DNA of 6,092 bases from a virus (Duplodnaviria; Heunggongvirae; Uroviricota; Caudoviricetes). The stretch lies in the IMG/VR virus record IMGVR_UViG_2667527717_000005, positions 1 through 6,092 of that record, one strand, 5' to 3'. Of the stretch, positions 1 to 6,092 are shown piece by piece (position 1 is the first letter of the stretch; the number at the start of each line of letters is the position of its first letter). A program made the translations under genes and the position numbers. The notes beneath the pieces are model-generated. The model saw nothing but the letters and a program-made list of their open reading frames with translations, did not search any database and was not told where the DNA came from.

Positions 1-139
1 ATCCGCATTTTACTGCCGCTGACGCTGGCCATCCTCGACGGCATGTCCGTACGCGTTGCGGATGAAGTTTTCATTCTGCCGCTGAATGCTGTCATGGAAT
101 CACTGTAACCCCGCGAAGCCGATCTGCATCCACTGGCCG
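1..139 (+). pseudogene. cheA: 3' fragment of a cheA-like chemotaxis histidine kinase gene (end of ATP-binding domain into start of CheW-like P5 domain); in-frame TAA at 106-108; homology ends at 139/140
   Basis: Plus frame 1 translates as IRILLPLTLAILDGMSVRVADEVFILPLNAVMESL*PREADLHPLA. This matches, from memory, the conserved segment of enterobacterial CheA that follows the G2 box (as I recall ...TIRILLPLTLAILDGMSVRVADEVFILPLNAVMESLQPREADLHPLAGGERV...). The frame stays CheA-like for 10 codons after the TAA, then diverges at 139/140. Fragment runs off the left edge of the window. Confidence 0.55.
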
Positions 140-994
140 AAGTTTCACAATCCCTTTTTGTGTCAGGGTACCGTCAGGAATACTCGTAATCTGTCCCCAG
201 GGGTGCGTATGACTACCCGCAGCCTTACTATTCGCCAGGTCATATGCCGCCTTCACCGCGCTCGGAGTCGCCGCCTCTGTCGTGCTGTTGCTATTGGTCG
301 CGTTACTAAGCTTCACAATCCCTTTTTGCGTCAGTGTGCCATCTGGTATATCAGTAATCTGACTCCAGGTATGACGATGATTTCGAGCCTCAATCAGTGC
401 CGCTTTCACCGCTTTTGGCGTAGCCGCTTTGGTTTCGTCATCACTGTCAGTGGCGTTACTCAACTGCGTAAAGCCTTTTTGTGTCAATGTAGCATCAGGG
501 TGGTTAGTCGAATGTTCGTGTTCATCCAGTTGCGAATCGACGTAATCCCGTGTTGCCAGCACAATACTGGGATCAACGGTGAGTGTTACCGCAGTCGTGT
601 TGGACACTTCCATAATGAGACGAATGCAAACTTGCTTACCGCAGCCGCCGGGTAATAGCGGTTTATACGACTCCGGGAATTTACCGATAGCAATGAGTTC
701 ACCATCGGTATCAAAAACGCCGACTTCACGTATATACCAGCCGCCGATATTTTCGGGCAGTACAAGTTCCGCAATTAACCAGCTAGGATTATTGGGCGCA
801 ACTGTTAATGTATTTAAATCACCGCGCCAGACCTCATGGCGTAATTTAGTTTGACTCGCCGTGGGTTCATAATATTGCCCACCGCCGTCTCCAACGGCCA
901 TCTTTTGCAGATGCAGTTGTTTTTTATCCGCAAGAGCACTGGCAATTTTTGCCATCCCTCTATTGGTCAGGAGGGTATAAAATTCATTATCCAT
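92..994 (-). CDS. Phage tail fiber protein, truncated (P2 gpH-like N-terminal baseplate-attachment domain plus about 2.5 fiber repeats; no receptor-binding C-terminal domain)
   Basis: 300 aa ORF. N-terminal motifs MAVGDGGG, HEVWR, IAELVLP and ESYKP follow the pattern of the P2 gpH / Mu S tail fiber N-terminal domain. It is followed by repeats of the TLTQKGxxxLSNAT...AATPxAVKAA type. Start ATG at 994 has GGAG 6 nt upstream. Residues 286-300 (RPVDADRLRGVTVIP) and the TGA stop are encoded by the antisense of the cheA-like fragment. Confidence 0.85.
   Translation of the reverse strand: MDNEFYTLLTNRGMAKIASALADKKQLHLQKMAVGDGGGQYYEPTASQTKLRHEVWRGDLNTLTVAPNNPSWLIAELVLPENIGGWYIREVGVFDTDGELIAIGKFPESYKPLLPGGCGKQVCIRLIMEVSNTTAVTLTVDPSIVLATRDYVDSQLDEHEHSTNHPDATLTQKGFTQLSNATDSDDETKAATPKAVKAALIEARNHRHTWSQITDIPDGTLTQKGIVKLSNATNSNSTTEAATPSAVKAAYDLANSKAAGSHTHPWGQITSIPDGTLTQKGIVKLRPVDADRLRGVTVIP
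140..520 (-). repeat. Imperfect tandem tail-fiber repeats inside the fiber gene (2 full units of about 51-56 codons plus a third unit cut off after 13 codons)
   Basis: Plus-strand motif ttcacaatccctttttg occurs at 144-160 and 312-328 (168 bp apart), with the related cctttttgtgtca at 474-486. Extended alignment of 140-200 against 308-368 is about 73% identical. At protein level: HPDATLTQKGFTQLSNAT..., DIPDGTLTQKGIVKLSNAT..., SIPDGTLTQKGIVKL|. Confidence 0.75.
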
Positions 995-996
995 AA

Positions 997-1629
997 TTAC
1001 TCCGGGTAAATAGATGTAATTTCAAGGCTCCATTGCCCTGTTCCGTAATAGATTGATGTGTTTTGCTGTACTTCCCGTATCTGGAAAGGTAAAACCGACG
1101 TCAGTTCACCACCATAAAGTGCACAACCAATAACAGGAATAGCACTTTGGTTAATGATCCAGACAATTAATGCTTCCAGTTTTGAACGTGTGTTTTTATA
1201 TTTATGAATGAGTTCTACCAGATTATTGAAAAGGTTTTCATCCATGCCTTTATCCACCAGCTCTATATCAACCTTAAAAAAATAAGCCTTCCCCCCATAT
1301 TCAAACCATTCTGAAATAGTTCCTGGTAATGAGAGTATTTCCAGCACCCGCCGTACCGCCCAAATCGTTCCTTTATATTTATGCAGCTCAATGGCTTGCT
1401 TAATTAGCTCGCGCTTCTCCCGTTCATCGGTGGTAAATAACCAACCTTCCAGCCCCTGAACGTGAAATTGTTCTGCAAGGGCTGGTAATGCCGAAGCATC
1501 AACCAGGTCGACCAGATAAACCATCAACGCCGTAAGATCGAGTTGGGCAAAACGCTCGGCGGCGATATTTGCCAGAATCGAAAAACGCTCATCGCTGGCA
1601 AGCGGCGGCGGTGGCAGCAATTTATCCAT
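997..1629 (-). CDS. Baseplate/tail protein, P2 gpI-like
   Basis: 210 aa ORF directly upstream of the fiber gene, the conserved gpI position. Contains an HKYKGTIWAVRRV motif resembling the gpI-family HxxGT(I/V)xA(I/V)RR region. Its stop TAA (997-999) lies 2 nt from the fiber ATG, and its start overlaps the J stop by 8 nt (ATGGATAAA). Confidence 0.8.
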   Translation of the reverse strand: MDKLLPPPPLASDERFSILANIAAERFAQLDLTALMVYLVDLVDASALPALAEQFHVQGLEGWLFTTDEREKRELIKQAIELHKYKGTIWAVRRVLEILSLPGTISEWFEYGGKAYFFKVDIELVDKGMDENLFNNLVELIHKYKNTRSKLEALIVWIINQSAIPVIGCALYGGELTSVLPFQIREVQQNTSIYYGTGQWSLEITSIYPE

Positions 1630-2737
1630 CGCTAACTCCGGCGATCGTTACGTCTATTGCAGTGCATTCCGCCCATTCATGCGCCTGCAAAATACGTTTT
1701 GTAGGCAAGTTCAGCACAACGTCATAGACGCCATCGACCTGTAACACTTTGATTATCTGGTTTGGCACAATGTCCTGCCCCAGATGTTTCTGCCGCTGTT
1801 GCGTCCAGAGGCTAATCGCTTTACGCGCCGCAGCCAGAGTTGTCTCCTGATCGGCGGTGGTAAACAGCGTTAGCTGCGCACGGATCTCATACGGCACTCG
1901 AAGAGCGCATTTCGCACTCACTTTGTCGGTCAGCGGACGTTTTTTCTCCTTGCTAACCTCCTGTTCGATTTGCGCGAGCAGTTCTATTCCCGGCAGTCCG
2001 TTCAGGGTTAGCGGGTAGATCTCCACGCAGCCTTCTGGCAATCCCTCGTCCGGCCCCAGTACTGCAACGTCAATAATCGACTGGCTTACGGAAAGCGTAT
2101 GAAAGCGGTAGGCACCATAGCTGCCCGCATTACTAAAGCTTTCTGGTGCCAGTTGGATACGCTGGCGCAATGCGTCATCGCTCTCTTCACCGCAGCCGCC
2201 CGTTGACGCAGTCAGGTTGATTACGTTGATGTCATAATGACCAATCCTGTCGACCAGAGCGCTAATTTGTGCAGGCTGCCAGCCGTTACCCTGTTCACCT
2301 GCTGCGAGGCTGGTGGCAGGAACGGCGATATGCAAACTCCTGGCCGGGAGCAGAACATCTTCATCGGTGGCGAACATCACGCTATCAGAGGCACTGGCCC
2401 GCGTCCCCTGGGGAATCAGGATATTGCTGGTATACGCACTGACAACCGAAAACTGCAACGTCGTTTTTGCTGACTGCGCAGGCAAACGATGAACGCCCAC
2501 CAGCTCCCCTAAATAATCCAGCATTGGCGCGCGGGAATACGCGACCAGGTTCTGTTTCGCCGCTTCCTGAATGGCGATGCGTACAAGGTTTTCACGATAG
2601 GCAAAAAGGTCAATCAGCAACCGCTCGGCCTGTGCCGGGTAGAGCTTTTTGCCGCTGGCATCTTCGTATTGCGCAATCATCTCGCTGGTAATTTGCGCAG
2701 GATCGCGTTCAATAAAATTGGGTTCGGCTATCGCCAT
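1622..2737 (-). CDS. Baseplate J-like protein (P2 gpJ / Mu gp47 / T4 gp6-like wedge protein)
   Basis: 371 aa ORF with a central SFSNAGSYGAYRFHTLSV region that resembles the conserved gpJ-family core. Sits between the W-like and I-like genes as in P2. Start overlaps the W stop by 10 nt. Confidence 0.85.
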   Translation of the reverse strand: MAIAEPNFIERDPAQITSEMIAQYEDASGKKLYPAQAERLLIDLFAYRENLVRIAIQEAAKQNLVAYSRAPMLDYLGELVGVHRLPAQSAKTTLQFSVVSAYTSNILIPQGTRASASDSVMFATDEDVLLPARSLHIAVPATSLAAGEQGNGWQPAQISALVDRIGHYDINVINLTASTGGCGEESDDALRQRIQLAPESFSNAGSYGAYRFHTLSVSQSIIDVAVLGPDEGLPEGCVEIYPLTLNGLPGIELLAQIEQEVSKEKKRPLTDKVSAKCALRVPYEIRAQLTLFTTADQETTLAAARKAISLWTQQRQKHLGQDIVPNQIIKVLQVDGVYDVVLNLPTKRILQAHEWAECTAIDVTIAGVSDG

Positions 2738-3087
2738 AACACCTCCGTTGAGTTGATTACGCCGTCAGCGGCGCGCCATTGCACACGTAACGTCAGATGT
2801 TCACCGTCGATTACAGGTGTCACCTTCAGCAACCGGCAGCGCGGTTCCCACTGGCGGATGGCCTCTACCGACTCCCGTACCACATGCGGGATCGCCCGCT
2901 CGATGGGATAATCGATGTAGTGCCACAAATTGCTGCCAAACAGCGGTCTGTGGGGATCACTGCCGCGCGGTGTACGCAGAATGATGTGTATTGCCTGGTG
3001 AATATCATCCAGTCCGCAGACGTATTCTTCAGGCCGCTGCAAGGCCGGTTGCCAGTGCAGCGTTGAGGGGCGTGTTTTTGTGTTCAT
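2728..3087 (-). CDS. Baseplate wedge protein, P2 gpW / T4 gp25-like
   Basis: 119 aa ORF, the size and position typical of gpW (between V and J). Contains a gpW-like IxxILxTPxGS core (IHIILRTPRGS). Start ATG at 3085-3087. Confidence 0.8.
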   Translation of the reverse strand: MNTKTRPSTLHWQPALQRPEEYVCGLDDIHQAIHIILRTPRGSDPHRPLFGSNLWHYIDYPIERAIPHVVRESVEAIRQWEPRCRLLKVTPVIDGEHLTLRVQWRAADGVINSTEVLWR

Positions 3088-3150
3088 GAGGGTATTTTCG
3101 CCCTGACCGGGCTGTGGAGATATTAAAGCGATTTAGAAAACTGATTGATT

Positions 3151-3184
3151 AAAAAGAGAAAACCCGCTATCAGGCGGGTTAAAA
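3151..3184 (-). terminator. Candidate rho-independent terminator or attenuator directly after the spike gene, between V and W
   Basis: On the minus strand, immediately 3' of the V stop: TGA-c-tttt-AACCCGC-ctgata-GCGGGTT-TTCTCTTTTT. That is a 7 bp GC-rich stem (3161-3167 pairing with 3174-3180), a 6 nt loop, then a run with 8 of 10 T. Seen directly in the sequence; function is inferred. Confidence 0.45.
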
Positions 3185-3185
3185 G

Positions 3186-3887
3186 TCAGTGTGAATGGTG
3201 GTTGGAGTTGCCACCGCTGTCCTGCAATGCGCCGCTGGCCTGAACGTTGCCGATCACGTTGACATTGCCGGTTATCGTGGCGGCGTTACCGATGCCTCCA
3301 CTTCCTGCCATCCCACCAAGCCAGGTGAGTTTTTTCATCACCGTGACGTTGCCGGTAAAGGTACTGAGCGGTGCGTCTACCGTTACAGCCATCGCTTTAA
3401 CATCGACCTTACTGGCTTCAATGCTGACGTCGGTGGCTTTCACATCAACAGTGTCGGAAGTCACGGTGACGTGTTGGGCTTTAACCTCAACGTTGGGCGA
3501 TATCAGGCTGGTACGGTCGATAACCTCAATCACGATTTTTTCGATACCACCGTTAATCGTAAGCTGGTGGGTGCTGCGGTCATATTCAAACGCTGCGCCA
3601 TCGGAAAACTGGACATAGCGTTTGTCGCGCGATGCTACTGGCGCGGTATCTACCGTTGAATATACTGCGCCCAGCACCACGCCATCTTCACCGTTATCAT
3701 CCAGCAGAACCTCCACCTGCTCTCCCATGTCCGGTAGCCAGTAGTCTTTATTGTCCTGGGAATTGCGTTGAAGTACCGCAAGCCAGTTGCTCTTCAGATT
3801 GTCACACTCTGGAAGCGTGACTCGCACCCGAACGCTGGTTTCGTCAATATCGCTGATAATCCCCGTTTGCCGGGTTACTCCTTTCAT
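3186..3887 (-). CDS. Baseplate assembly protein V (central spike, P2 gpV-like)
   Basis: 233 aa ORF with an N-terminal OB-fold-like region (WLPDMGEQVEVL, GVVLGAVYS), then short V/T-rich beta-helix-like repeats (VDVKATDVSIEASKVDVKA, GNVTV, GNVNVIGNV), and a C-terminal His cluster NHHSH. A strong Shine-Dalgarno AAGGAGG lies 5 nt upstream of the ATG. Confidence 0.88.
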   Translation of the reverse strand: MKGVTRQTGIISDIDETSVRVRVTLPECDNLKSNWLAVLQRNSQDNKDYWLPDMGEQVEVLLDDNGEDGVVLGAVYSTVDTAPVASRDKRYVQFSDGAAFEYDRSTHQLTINGGIEKIVIEVIDRTSLISPNVEVKAQHVTVTSDTVDVKATDVSIEASKVDVKAMAVTVDAPLSTFTGNVTVMKKLTWLGGMAGSGGIGNAATITGNVNVIGNVQASGALQDSGGNSNHHSH

Positions 3888-3900
3888 ATTTCCTCCTTAC
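3888..3900 (-). promoter_or_regulatory. Ribosome-binding site for the V gene, overlapping the stop codon of the D gene
   Basis: Minus strand reads TAAGGAGGAAATATG: the D stop TAA is followed directly by AAGGAGG and then the V ATG after a 5 nt spacer. Confidence 0.7.
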
Positions 3901-4937
3901 TGGCTGGTCGCTGGCCCGCGTGACACGTCGATTTCAGTGGTATAGCCGCTGCGCACAAAACTGTGAGTAGATTTATCAATCAGCCACTGACCGGAAAGCA
4001 CGCCAAAATCGGTCAGTTCAATTTTATTGCCCGCCGTCAGTTCCGGGCAGCCCATCATTGTGAGCGTTCCGGTTTGCTGATATTCGTTGTGGCTGTCGAG
4101 TGCAGCGTTGGCCTTTGCCTGTGCTGCGCCAATGTCCGTCGCCCGACTGTTCAGTTTTAGCGTGTCGGCACTGGTGCCGACTCCACGGGCAGACGGTTTT
4201 TGCTGGCTGTCGTGGGTGTAGATAACCAGTTCTTTTTTCTTACTATTTTGATGCTGTACGGTGGCGTTTTTGTAGATACGGTTAATGGTATCTTTGAAGG
4301 TGAAATGCGAAACGTCTTTGCGGTCGATCGTTTTTACCGGTGCCAGGCAGCGCAGCGTGGGTAAATGTGAAAAAATCAGCTCTTTTGTCGTCACTTTTAC
4401 GGCATAACCATATTCACTGGCCAGACGTTTGAGAAATCCAACATCGGTTTCACCATACTGCGTTACCCGGTCGATGGTGAGCGGCTCGATTTTGCCCACC
4501 AGTTTCAGACCGTGCGTTTGCGCGATACGGCTGGCGATAGCCGAAAGCGTCGTCTCTTCAAAGCCCTGGCTGTTACGCGTGCGTAGCGCCTGATTGACGG
4601 AAGTGGCGATGCCATCAATATTTACCGTAGAAGGTGGCGATGAAATATCAATTTTATCAATAATATACTGACCACAATCGAGCAGCTTTTCCCCCTGATA
4701 ACCCATATGCAGCGCCAGCGTATCGCCTTTGCCGGGATACCACTCTTTTATCCAGCGTCCATCGGTGTCATCCAGTGTAATCGCGATGGTATCCGACTCG
4801 TTTTTAATACTGTCCTGGTAACTGATGCTGGTGACATAAGGCGTGATGTCATAAGTGATATCTTTATGCCCATACCAGAGGGTAAAAATGGGCGTGAGTG
4901 TTGCAAAGACGCCGCCAGTTACGCTTATCTCAGCCAT
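3897..4937 (-). CDS. Tail protein D (P2 gpD / Mu gpP-like late control D protein; baseplate hub)
   Basis: 346 aa ORF in the conserved position between X and V. Size and layout are consistent with the gpD family. Start ATG (4935-4937) lies inside the last codons of X (13 nt overlap), with GGAG upstream. Confidence 0.8.
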   Translation of the reverse strand: MAEISVTGGVFATLTPIFTLWYGHKDITYDITPYVTSISYQDSIKNESDTIAITLDDTDGRWIKEWYPGKGDTLALHMGYQGEKLLDCGQYIIDKIDISSPPSTVNIDGIATSVNQALRTRNSQGFEETTLSAIASRIAQTHGLKLVGKIEPLTIDRVTQYGETDVGFLKRLASEYGYAVKVTTKELIFSHLPTLRCLAPVKTIDRKDVSHFTFKDTINRIYKNATVQHQNSKKKELVIYTHDSQQKPSARGVGTSADTLKLNSRATDIGAAQAKANAALDSHNEYQQTGTLTMMGCPELTAGNKIELTDFGVLSGQWLIDKSTHSFVRSGYTTEIDVSRGPATSQ

Positions 4938-5134
4938 GGTGGGATCTCCGATAAGGTTTTATTGACGGAAATGACCGGAATGATGAGCTGAATACCGGAA
5001 GGCAGTACCGGATAAATGGCGACATGTGGATTGGCTGCGATAATGCGTTCATAAGCCAGTGCATCGCCGTAGTAATGCCAGGCCAGGTTATCCCAGCGTT
5101 CGCCATCGGTGGTGATATGTTCAAGGTATCGCAT
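4925..5134 (-). CDS. Tail protein X (P2 gpX-like small LysM-like protein)
   Basis: 69 aa ORF with a WHYYGDALAYERIIAANP motif resembling the gpX-family YYG...AANP signature. Its ATG shares a base with the U-like gene stop (TAATG at 5132-5136). Confidence 0.8.
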   Translation of the reverse strand: MRYLEHITTDGERWDNLAWHYYGDALAYERIIAANPHVAIYPVLPSGIQLIIPVISVNKTLSEIPPWLR

Positions 5135-6087
5135 TACCAGCTCCTCGTAATGGTCGCGGCAGCAAGCTGGCTCACTGCGGGAGTGGTTTGTTGTACCGTT
5201 GTTCGTGCCTGATCAACCAACGTTGCGGCTTTATCAAACGTCGCTTCGGCGATGTTGCTGGCAATGTCGTCGAAAAGTGTCTGAGCATGGTCAACCAGCG
5301 TACTGGCGTCATTGGCGCAGTCCCGTATACCTGGCATGTTACCCAGTAAAGCTTTAATCTGAGCCGACAACGCTTTTGGGAGTCCTGCCAGCATTTGCAG
5401 ATCCATTGGCTGTTTAAACAGGGTTTCGATGGCGTCGATAGTCTTTTTCAACGACGTAATTATCTTTTCACACTTTTCTTTTAACGCTTTGGCCTCTTTA
5501 ATCAGTGCTTTCACTTTTGCCACTGTTTTTTTAATATCTTCAATGGTTTGCGCCAGTTCATCGAGCATCTCTTTGGCTTTGCGCATACCTTCTTCAATGG
5601 CGTTCAATATCTGATACAACCAGGACTCCACCTTATTCGGAAAATCGCTCGCCTTTTCCTCGATATTAGGCTCCTGGGTGGTAATTGCCGGGGGCAGCAG
5701 TGGGTTTTTCGGATCGCCGGTATACTCCTGGAGCGACATTGTTCCGCTTTGGGCAATGACATTGCCCCAGGGATCGGTGTGCTGGTGAGTGGCGGTTAAC
5801 TCTGTAATTACAAACCAGCCGCGATAATCTCCGTTGCCAAACACCAGCGCCATTGCTTTGTGAGCAAGCATGGCTTCACGCAGTCGATTCAGCTCTGTTG
5901 TGGGTTGGCAAAACTGGCTGTGCAGGGAAAATTCCAGCGCCAGCATATCCAGCTTATCGCCAATAAACTGCACGCCGGGTTTGCCTTCTATACGGGCATG
6001 TGTGGCGTAATCCACGCCCATTGTGCTTTTAAAGCCGTCCCAGAATGTGACAACTTTAAATTCAATCTCTCCTAAAACGGCATACAT
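5134..6087 (-). CDS. Tail protein with a P2 gpU-like N-terminal region and a long coiled-coil C-terminal extension (possibly Mu DNA-circulation-protein-like)
   Basis: 317 aa ORF. The N-terminus (MYAVLGEIEFKVV...GDYRGWFVITELTATH) resembles gpU-family proteins and the gene sits directly upstream of X and D as in pyocin-type clusters. The C-terminal 170 or so residues are K/E/A-rich with heptad-like periodicity. Start ATG at 6085-6087 is 5 nt from the window edge, so the true start is not certain. Confidence 0.6.
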   Translation of the reverse strand: MYAVLGEIEFKVVTFWDGFKSTMGVDYATHARIEGKPGVQFIGDKLDMLALEFSLHSQFCQPTTELNRLREAMLAHKAMALVFGNGDYRGWFVITELTATHQHTDPWGNVIAQSGTMSLQEYTGDPKNPLLPPAITTQEPNIEEKASDFPNKVESWLYQILNAIEEGMRKAKEMLDELAQTIEDIKKTVAKVKALIKEAKALKEKCEKIITSLKKTIDAIETLFKQPMDLQMLAGLPKALSAQIKALLGNMPGIRDCANDASTLVDHAQTLFDDIASNIAEATFDKAATLVDQARTTVQQTTPAVSQLAAATITRSW

Positions 6088-6092
6088 CAGGC

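Follow-up and report, generated by a model that had tools for sequence, protein, structure and literature searches.

The stretch of DNA analysed here, called the window throughout, comprises positions 1 to 6,092 of IMG/VR record IMGVR_UViG_2667527717_000005 (Caudoviricetes) and carries a run of phage tail genes. All long open reading frames in the ORF list lie on the minus strand. Pfam assigned their products to the gpU, gpX, gpD, gpV, gpW/gp25-like, gpJ and gpI families and to the N-terminal part of a tail fibre (Table 1). V is named 'phage baseplate assembly protein V' in RefSeq, where W is given the same start as here. An earlier note on this DNA had singled out the 98 bp between V and W as the only sizeable intergenic space of the cluster, and this is correct: the V-W gap occupies 3088-3185, and the remaining gene junctions in the window either overlap or are separated by 9 nt or less. 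An Rfam search of both strands at an E-value threshold of 10 returned no match in or near the gap.

Positions 140-6092 of the window are 100% identical to a segment of the chromosome of E. coli strain A10, in which the cluster is located between lysC and yjbD. E. coli MS6198 is a further carrier strain. The A10 cluster consists of a divergently transcribed Mor-family activator gene; genes for a holin, a transglycosylase and a membrane protein; genes for a Gp37-family protein, sheath, tube, chaperone and tape measure; and U, X, D, V, W, J, I, a full-length fibre gene and two small genes. It contains no head, transposase or integrase genes and is thus best described as a tailocin-like element confined to tail and lysis functions. 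The complete transposable phage PhiKM (genus Bcepmuvirus) has these genes in the same order, again with only a short gap between V and W, which places the module in the BcepMu type and not in the P2 type. Two published elements were considered as counterparts of the cluster and rejected: the ST131 'tailocin' (PMC9205054), which is of the P2/R2-pyocin type, and BceTMilo (PMC5411513), which is of that type as well and has Ogr.

Table 1. Genes and sequence elements of the window, in the order in which they are read on the coding (minus) strand
Feature	Position	Strand	Remarks
Gene U	5134-6087	minus	gpU by Pfam
Gene X	4925-5134	minus	gpX by Pfam
Gene D	3897-4937	minus	gpD by Pfam
Gene V	3186..3887	minus	gpV baseplate spike, 233 aa; Pfam Phage_base_V 1.1e-07
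V stop codon TGA	3188..3186	minus	
Stem-loop AACCCGC-CTGATA-GCGGGTT	3161..3180	minus	5' arm 3180..3174, loop 3173..3168, 3' arm 3167..3161
T-tract TTCTCTTTTT	3151..3160	minus	immediately 3' of the stem
Bipartite dyad CTAAAT-CG-CTTTAA	3123..3136	minus	predicted Mor/C-family activator site; column counts, PWM scans
Spacer from dyad to -10	3100..3122	minus	length constant; no -35 hexamer
Predicted -10 hexamer GAAAAT	3094..3099	minus	-12..-7 if the A of the ATG is +1
W start codon ATG	3085..3087	minus	A at 3087 is the predicted transcription start; conserved C at -1
Gene W	2728..3087	minus	gpW/gp25-like wedge, 119 aa; Pfam GPW_gp25 5.1e-11
Gene J	1622-2737	minus	gpJ by Pfam
Gene I	997-1629	minus	gpI by Pfam
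Gene H	92-994	minus	N-terminal part of tail fibre, by Pfam

The V-W junction in related loci

For comparison, 80 loci encoding relatives of J were collected, with one genome per species, and V and W were located in each. The gap between the two genes is usually 45-100 nt, and only in the most distant relatives are V and W coupled or overlapping. In most relatives the gap is 45-65 nt long and holds a promoter-like element alone; in two of those with gaps of this length, the V stop codon lies inside the dyad described below. About twenty loci have 0.2-3.4 kb between V and W, mostly up to 1.6 kb and 3.4 kb in two of them. The junction is a hotspot of insertion, and the material gathered there includes defence genes, an ERIC-like element and a REP-like element; in several relatives the cargo genes lie on the reverse strand. 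In nearly all relatives the promoter-like element adjoins W, even where 0.3-3.4 kb has been inserted after V.

A promoter-like element upstream of W

The last ~50 nt before the W ATG are conserved across Enterobacterales, Burkholderiales, Neisseriales and beyond. Column counts were made on 45 distinct relatives aligned on the W ATG, with the A numbered +1. TTAA at -49..-46 is kept in 32-40 of the 45, depending on the column, and TTTAA at -40..-36 in 29-38. Further downstream the conserved positions are G at -14 (31/45), A at -11 and T at -7 (39/45 each), and C at -1 (34/45). The two outer blocks are the halves of a dyad with the family consensus TTAAAG-N2-CTTTAA, that is, TTAA-N6-TTAA. The dyad centre falls between 3130 and 3129 in the window, at -42.5 from the A of the ATG, and its distance from the W ATG is 42 +/- 1 nt across essentially all lineages. 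GAAAAT, the predicted -10, ends 6 nt before the ATG and lies 30 nt from the dyad centre. The most variable part of the gap is the interior of the spacer (~3105-3119, or -32..-18), the bases beside the dyad and the -10 being conserved. The spacer of the window can form GCCC-GGTCA-GGGC (3112..3100).

A sigma-70 scan in which a -35 was required found no promoter in the V-W gap. This empty scan fits an activator-dependent promoter and says nothing by itself.

The full 55-column position weight matrix (PWM) built from this alignment is partly circular for the loci on which it was trained, and the scans were repeated with a masked matrix, with a dyad-only matrix and on loci outside the training set. 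In non-training loci whose upstream neighbour of W is not V, the element ends exactly at the W ATG. The promoter half of the gap (3088-3136) is probably a widely conserved phage late promoter.

A close known counterpart is found in phage Mu, whose four late promoters lack a -35 and combine a recognisable -10 with a C-binding dyad centred at -43.5 (PMC2582627); the consensus for MuC is TTAT-N5-6-ATAA (PMC12867686). The geometry of the predicted W promoter matches that of PP, the C-dependent Mu late promoter. In PP (TTAACTG|CCATAAC...TATCCT) the -10 is located at +31..36 from the centre of the C-dyad, exactly as GAAAAT is here. A description of the promoters of BcepMu-type elements was not found in the literature searched, the coverage of which was incomplete.

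A candidate activator and recurrence of the motif

The Mor-family gene lies outside the window, at 28317-28664 of the E. coli locus (L001), and is recognised by Pfam Mor at 6.3e-38. The E. coli protein is 44% identical to the PhiKM protein annotated as 'positive regulator of late transcription protein C'. An activator of the P2 kind has no counterpart here: the annotation of the 36-kb E. coli locus includes no ogr-type gene, TGT does not occur on the coding strand of the V-W gap, and the P2 activator site TGT-N12-ACA is absent from it.

The dyad recurs at other operon starts. With the dyad-only PWM, four matches in PhiKM outscored every one of 30 shuffles. These are intergenic coding-strand sites at operon starts, one each before the lysis genes, the genes for protease and scaffold, the tail gene E and W. 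A hexamer nAnnCT is present at +31..36 in 4/4 of these sites, in columns that did not enter the score. Inclusion of the -10 block in the matrix yielded a fifth PhiKM site, upstream of the gene for dam methylase. The dyad-plus--10 PWM was also applied to the 36-kb E. coli locus, where it scored the site at W at 36.5, that before gp37 at 19.5 and that before the holin gene at 17.4, the latter two only slightly above the shuffled maximum of 15.8. With the dyad-only PWM, W alone (27.7) exceeded the shuffled maximum of 16.9, and gp37 and holin scored 15.6 and 9.8. We infer from the conserved dyad, its recurrence and the Mor-family gene at the edge of the cluster that this activator would bind upstream of W and that the promoter would depend on it.

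The start of W

W is the only gene in the window that has no Shine-Dalgarno (SD) sequence. Inspection of the sequence shows GGAG or GAGG 5-9 nt before the ATG in X, D, V, J, I and H, while the sequence upstream of W is GGGCGAAAATACCCTC-ATG and holds no GGAG-type motif 5-10 nt upstream. The earlier note had described W as the sole gene that is not translationally coupled and as having a weak SD; the lack of coupling stands, and the 'weak' SD proved on direct reading to be no usable SD at all. The start codon of W is ATG in every promoter-bearing relative, and the protein is conserved from Met1.

The position of the -10 offers an explanation. Because GAAAAT ends 6 nt before the ATG, and transcription usually starts at the seventh nucleotide, the start is predicted at the A of the ATG itself. 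The W mRNA is thus probably leaderless, beginning exactly at the ATG, and in the proposed model W would be the sole gene lacking an SD because its transcript has no leader in which to place one. At the other late sites, 19-54 nt separate the predicted start from the ATG, which is preceded by a GGAG-type SD. The start site of W could be 1-2 nt off the A. The supplement of transcription start sites for B. cenocepacia J2315 lists none at the late genes of the BcepMu prophage.

A leadered alternative would use TAATAT (3125..3120) as the -10, so that transcription began near 3113 and W was translated without an SD from a leader of ~26 nt containing a small G+C hairpin. TAATAT is indeed closer to the -10 consensus than GAAAAT, related PhiKM sites read TAAAAT or TAATAT, and many relatives have hairpin-forming sequence before the ATG, with stems that differ by lineage. 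However, this hexamer is itself half of the dyad (the right half plus flank), and the T in its sixth position (-33) is kept in 24/45 relatives, compared with 39/45 for the T at -7. The register of the hairpin shifts between lineages, whereas the distance from hexamer to ATG is constant. It is GAAAAT that shares the distance of the Mu PP -10 from the dyad centre, and the downstream hexamer stands at that fixed distance in the PhiKM sites too, outside the scored columns. We consider TAATAT an unlikely -10.

A different route to translation without a nearby SD is known from T4 gene 25, in which a split ribosome-binding site is bridged by a hairpin. This reading was dropped for W because no SD occurs upstream of the hairpin in any lineage.

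A predicted terminator downstream of V

On the coding strand the gap begins with CTTTT-AACCCGC-CTGATA-GCGGGTT-TTCTCTTTTT. The hairpin and T-tract that the earlier note had placed directly after the V stop are therefore present: a 7-bp stem begins 5 nt past the stop, in non-coding DNA and on the coding strand. A consensus terminator scan matched AACCCGCCTGATAGCGGGTT followed by TTCTCTTTTT on the minus strand (3180..3161), with a stem of 7 pairs, 5 of them G-C, and a loop of 6 nt; the stem length is within the range of 5-14 bp of rho-independent terminators. From the last two T of the stem onward the RNA would read UUUUCUCUUUUU. T occupies 8 of the 10 bases 3' of the stem, and the efficiency of termination is uncertain because two C interrupt the tract.

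Prediction of the folding energy, which had been proposed as a check, was favourable. The 35-nt segment 3151-3185 folds at -11.1 kcal/mol compared with -3.8 +/- 1.8 kcal/mol for its shuffles (z = -4.1), and 0 of 200 shuffles folded as well. Across computations the energy of the hairpin ranged from -10.6 to -11.1 kcal/mol. The fold of the V-W gap as a whole is unremarkable (z = -1.56). Terminator-like matches are not enriched in the window (10 found, 6.4 +/- 2.4 expected), and at the background rate 98 nt of a single strand would contain some match by chance with a probability of about 5%; the significance of this one therefore rests on the quality, position and conservation of the hairpin. It is the best coding-strand terminator match in the window.

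The V-W gap is carried by 195 of 5426 complete E. coli genomes at 96-100% identity. In an alignment of sampled E. coli copies, the hairpin and T-tract are invariant and the spacer further downstream varies. In six other aligned copies of the E. coli type, from five RefSeq strains and from contig L002, the stem is 8 bp long and capped by a TGAT tetraloop, and the hairpin folds at -14.8 to -15.3 kcal/mol. In the window, a G-to-A change abolishes the eighth, closing pair (-10.6 versus -14.8 kcal/mol), leaving the weakest version of the hairpin, with 7 bp and a hexaloop. Superficieibacter, whose V is 77-82% identical, has retained an ACCCGCC/GGCGGGT stem and the T-tract, although its loop and flanking bases differ. 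No compensatory changes distinguish the terminators of E. coli and Superficieibacter, which have a common stem sequence and differ only in the loop and in one extra pair; the support is thus one of conservation and not of covariation.

Outside this clade no canonical hairpin with T-tract follows V, and most relatives have no terminator at the V-W junction. Remnants of the stem, broken by an ERIC-like or REP-like insertion, are found in Dryocola and Phytobacter, and unrelated G+C hairpins occupy the same spot in a few distant relatives (L041, L066 and L078).

The possibility that the hairpin is itself a REP or ERIC element was rejected. ERIC-like and REP-like elements are inserted at the spot of the hairpin in two loci (L006 and L022).

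Judged by its sequence, the hairpin is a real but ordinary rho-independent terminator. Since most relatives lack a terminator here, termination is evidently not required for the function of the module, and the hairpin is better viewed as a lineage-specific insulator or 3'-end element than as the conserved function of the gap. That function is the promoter, because the terminator is confined to one clade and most gaps hold a promoter only.

The V-W gap as a probable operon boundary

We consider it likely, with moderate confidence, that the V-W gap is an operon boundary at which a terminator is followed by a Mor/C-type late promoter giving a leaderless W-J-I-H mRNA. An upstream transcript would start at a promoter before the gp37-like gene and run through the sheath, tube and tape measure genes and U, X, D and V. 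It would be ended, at least in part, by the terminator at 3180..3151, which would also protect the 3' end of the upstream RNA. The Mor-family activator made from the edge of the cluster would bind the TTAA-N6-TTAA dyad of a promoter that has no -35, a weak -10 (GAAAAT) being located 30 bp from the dyad centre. Transcription by RNA polymerase would begin 7 nt past the -10, on the A of the W ATG, and produce the leaderless message. The terminator most likely serves to end the long upstream unit, from the Gp37-family gene to V, and to keep elongating polymerases off the W promoter. Incomplete termination is plausible because the U-tract is interrupted and the stem of this allele is weakened.

The earlier note had read the junction otherwise, as the interior of a single operon in which the hairpin acts as a partial terminator or attenuator, read-through setting the level of W-J-I-H relative to U-X-D-V. 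The hairpin and U-tract on which that reading is built are real, though only moderately strong (-11.1 kcal/mol, C-interrupted), and the gap has no sigma-70 promoter with a -35. Its premise that these genes normally form one operon holds for V-W-J-I-H of P2 (GenBank), where V-W-J-I-H-G is a single operon, but the module here is of the BcepMu type. Against attenuation, a conserved activator-type promoter lies between the hairpin and W in nearly all relatives, and the hairpin itself is missing from most of them. Reverse-strand cargo between V and W is hard to square with obligatory read-through, and W, lacking an SD, would be translated poorly from a read-through RNA. Expression of W-J-I-H is most likely set by their own activator-dependent promoter, because the promoter-like element adjoins W in nearly all relatives, and attenuation appears distinctly improbable. 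The same note had offered a 3' hairpin that stabilises RNA as a separate option from a terminator. These are one element, because the hairpin would also protect an RNA 3' end, and both descriptions survive; the consequence drawn for attenuation does not.

Very improbable, in our assessment, is that the hairpin has no selected function and is the leftover of a lost cargo gene or small insertion in an ancestral gap of 45-65 nt that held the promoter only: relatives with gaps of this length have no hairpin, the V stop overlaps the dyad in two, and the junction attracts insertions such as defence genes and ERIC-like and REP-like elements, but neither the stem nor the T-tract changes among the E. 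coli copies sampled, in contrast to the spacer close by, both are kept in Superficieibacter even at its degree of divergence in V, unrelated G+C hairpins have come to occupy the same spot elsewhere, and an origin by insertion is in any case compatible with a present terminator function.

Comparison with known systems

Both halves of the operon-boundary reading have precedents, in P2 and in Mu. In the P2 record (GenBank AF063097), the start site of the V operon is the first base of the V coding sequence, and upstream of V are the O-operon terminator, the nonessential reverse-strand orf30 and an activator binding site. The P2 O/V boundary thus resembles the one proposed here in having a rho-independent terminator, optional reverse-strand cargo, an activator site and a start at the first baseplate gene, and the tail genes are of the same families (V, W, J, I and H). 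It differs in its place, before V in P2 and after V here, and in its activator: Ogr of P2 is a zinc-finger protein that binds TGT-N12-ACA far upstream, whereas the candidate here belongs to the Mor family.

Mu PP, like the predicted W promoter, is an internal late promoter that splits the tail genes and has an AT-rich dyad and no -35 (PMC2582627, PMC12867686). In the Mu record it is placed in gene 43, upstream of the baseplate genes. The activator of Mu and that of the E. coli cluster are both of the Mor/C family. Unlike the predicted W promoter, PP lies within coding sequence, upstream of the hub gene P, and gives rise to a leadered transcript. No gap exists between Mu genes 45 and 46, which overlap, whereas V and W are separated here. 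The half-sites differ as well, being TTAT/ATAA or TTAA..TAAC in Mu and TTAAAG..CTTTAA here.

The bcepmuviruses BcepMu and PhiKM have the order U-X-D-V-gap-W-J-I-H of the window. PhiKM carries the same motif in a V-W gap of 54 nt and further copies at other late operon starts, a set that recalls lys, I, P and mom of Mu. The PhiKM gap is devoid of a terminator hairpin, in contrast to that of E. coli, and PhiKM is a complete transposable phage, while the E. coli element consists of tail and lysis genes only.

Natural leaderless controls are provided by lambda cI and Tn1721 tetR (PMC4965119). Together with P2 V, they share with W a -10 immediately before the ATG, the lack of an SD and a strict AUG. 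W differs from all three in being leaderless by prediction only and in being a late structural gene at the head of an activator-dependent operon of four or more genes.

Nothing known is overturned by these results, Mu and P2 already supplying both halves of the picture. The terminator is ordinary and a leaderless start has its precedent in P2; what is new is, modestly, the promoter prediction, together with a corrected operon picture. In BcepMu-type phages and their tailocin-like derivatives, the tail genes are predicted to be expressed in separate activator-dependent units, and the mRNA of the wedge and fibre unit to lack a leader. This would account for a structural gene that has no ribosome-binding site, which would otherwise seem an oddity of annotation. 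The motif TTAAAG-N2-CTTTAA, followed by 30 nt and nAnnnT, offers a usable consensus for the annotation of late operons across Proteobacteria. The V-W junction is in addition a slot that gathers anti-phage defence genes, which is of use in the engineering and induction of these particles and in defence-gene mining.

An inverted repeat next to the W start codon

One feature of the junction, a G+C-rich inverted repeat around the -10, is left unexplained by the promoter model. It is found between the dyad and the ATG in most lineages, in many of which its arms flank the -10 and it extends as far as the ATG, for example as GGGGGC-GATACT-GCCCCC, AGCGCCA-TCA-TGGCGCT and ACGGTCG-GCATCA-TGACCGT. Different lineages have different stems whose arms are mutually complementary; in the window 3101-3104 would pair with 3089-3092, and the version in Brenneria is stronger. 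The best stem averages 5.3 bp, compared with 4.1 bp when arms are mixed between loci and 4.4 +/- 0.1 bp in shuffled sequence, a comparison that overstates significance because of the relatedness of the loci. No such repeat is present at PhiKM late promoters other than that of W.

Because the repeat would lie outside a leaderless transcript, it could matter only in read-through RNA or at the level of DNA. It is possible, though to our minds doubtful, that the repeat is a functional element in its own right, acting as a block to translation or as a site of termination, processing or stabilisation. If it is a block, the hairpin in read-through RNA would abut the SD-less AUG, and W would be translated only from the leaderless, activator-dependent transcript. 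Otherwise, in relatives devoid of the canonical terminator, it may end transcription despite having no U-tract, or may be where the RNA is processed or its 3' end stabilised. The repeat folds at ~-13 kcal/mol where the terminator is absent and is weak in the E. coli clade, which has the terminator; in the window it amounts to 4 bp (AGGG/CCCT).

Cargo and insertions at the V-W junction

The junction between the baseplate spike gene V and the wedge gene W is a cargo hotspot among relatives. Its cargo includes a DUF4145 protein encoded on the opposite strand that matches the defence system PD-T7-4 (3.9e-81), an AbiJ_NTD4 protein matching the candidate system PDC-S32 (1.4e-106), and a protein with a DpnII/MboI-type nuclease domain; two further cargo proteins were without any match. 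In one relative the insert itself contains the promoter motif once more, with a predicted start at L011 4643. In the Chlorobium/Prosthecochloris relatives (L048, L051), from which the promoter motif is absent, the ORF between V and W encodes a PAAR-domain protein (3.9e-08), which is a structural spike-tip protein and not cargo. In Dryocola the terminator hairpin is interrupted by an ERIC-like element inserted there, and in Phytobacter a REP-like palindromic element splits it at the same place.

The inverted repeat before W has complementary stems that differ from lineage to lineage. Brenneria, Pectobacterium, Dickeya and Serratia, all of which are without the terminator, have a strong version of the repeat (about -13 kcal/mol); it is weak in the E. 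coli clade, where the terminator is present.

Positions of features in the window, in the E. coli A10 locus (L001) and in loci of relatives (other L-numbers)
Feature	Location	Remark
Inserts between V and W	L007, L011, L031, L072; L009, L013, L016; L012; L017; L038	
ERIC-like and REP-like elements	L006 5393-5650; L022 5475-5650	Dryocola and Phytobacter
PAAR-domain ORF	L048 2788-3054; L051 5329-5595	
G+C-rich inverted repeat	window 3089-3104; equivalent -20..-1 region in L005-L081	surrounds predicted -10, abuts W ATG
Tail-and-lysis-only cluster, BcepMu type	L001 13024-28664 (E. coli A10)	between lysC and yjbD
Window counterpart	L001 15001-20953	
gpU homologue	window 5134-6087	minus strand
G+C hairpin	L001 23806-23855	outside window

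Genomic context of the tail cluster

The A10 tail cluster, of which the window is a part, encodes a Mor-family activator and holds no head or transposition genes, and is thus tailocin-like. The V-W region was found in 195 of 5426 complete E. coli genomes. Identity of the A10 cluster with the ST131 'tailocin' of PMC9205054 was rejected, the latter being of the P2/R2 type.

Window positions 1-139 are a cheA fragment on the plus strand (99.3% identity), which meets the tail sequence at 139/140. The cheA gene of strain A10 is located about 2.5 Mb away from its tail cluster, and the two parts were contiguous in none of the complete RefSeq E. coli genomes. Gene H for the tail fibre, 1770 bp long in A10, is severed at the join, leaving a 300-aa 'H' ORF (92-994) that continues into antisense cheA sequence. 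Either an assembly chimera or a genuine rearrangement accounts for this join.

Other features

The gpU homologue has 317 aa, with the Phage_P2_GpU domain spanning residues 6-123 only; its C-terminal 190 residues gave weak coiled-coil-type matches and nothing else. Between the tube and chaperone genes of the A10 locus lies a perfect G+C hairpin, TTCGGGGC-TACG-GCCCCGAA, at which a T-tract is absent. The matching region of the complete transposable phage PhiKM (Bcepmuvirus) has a late promoter motif (L082 10716) in place of this hairpin.
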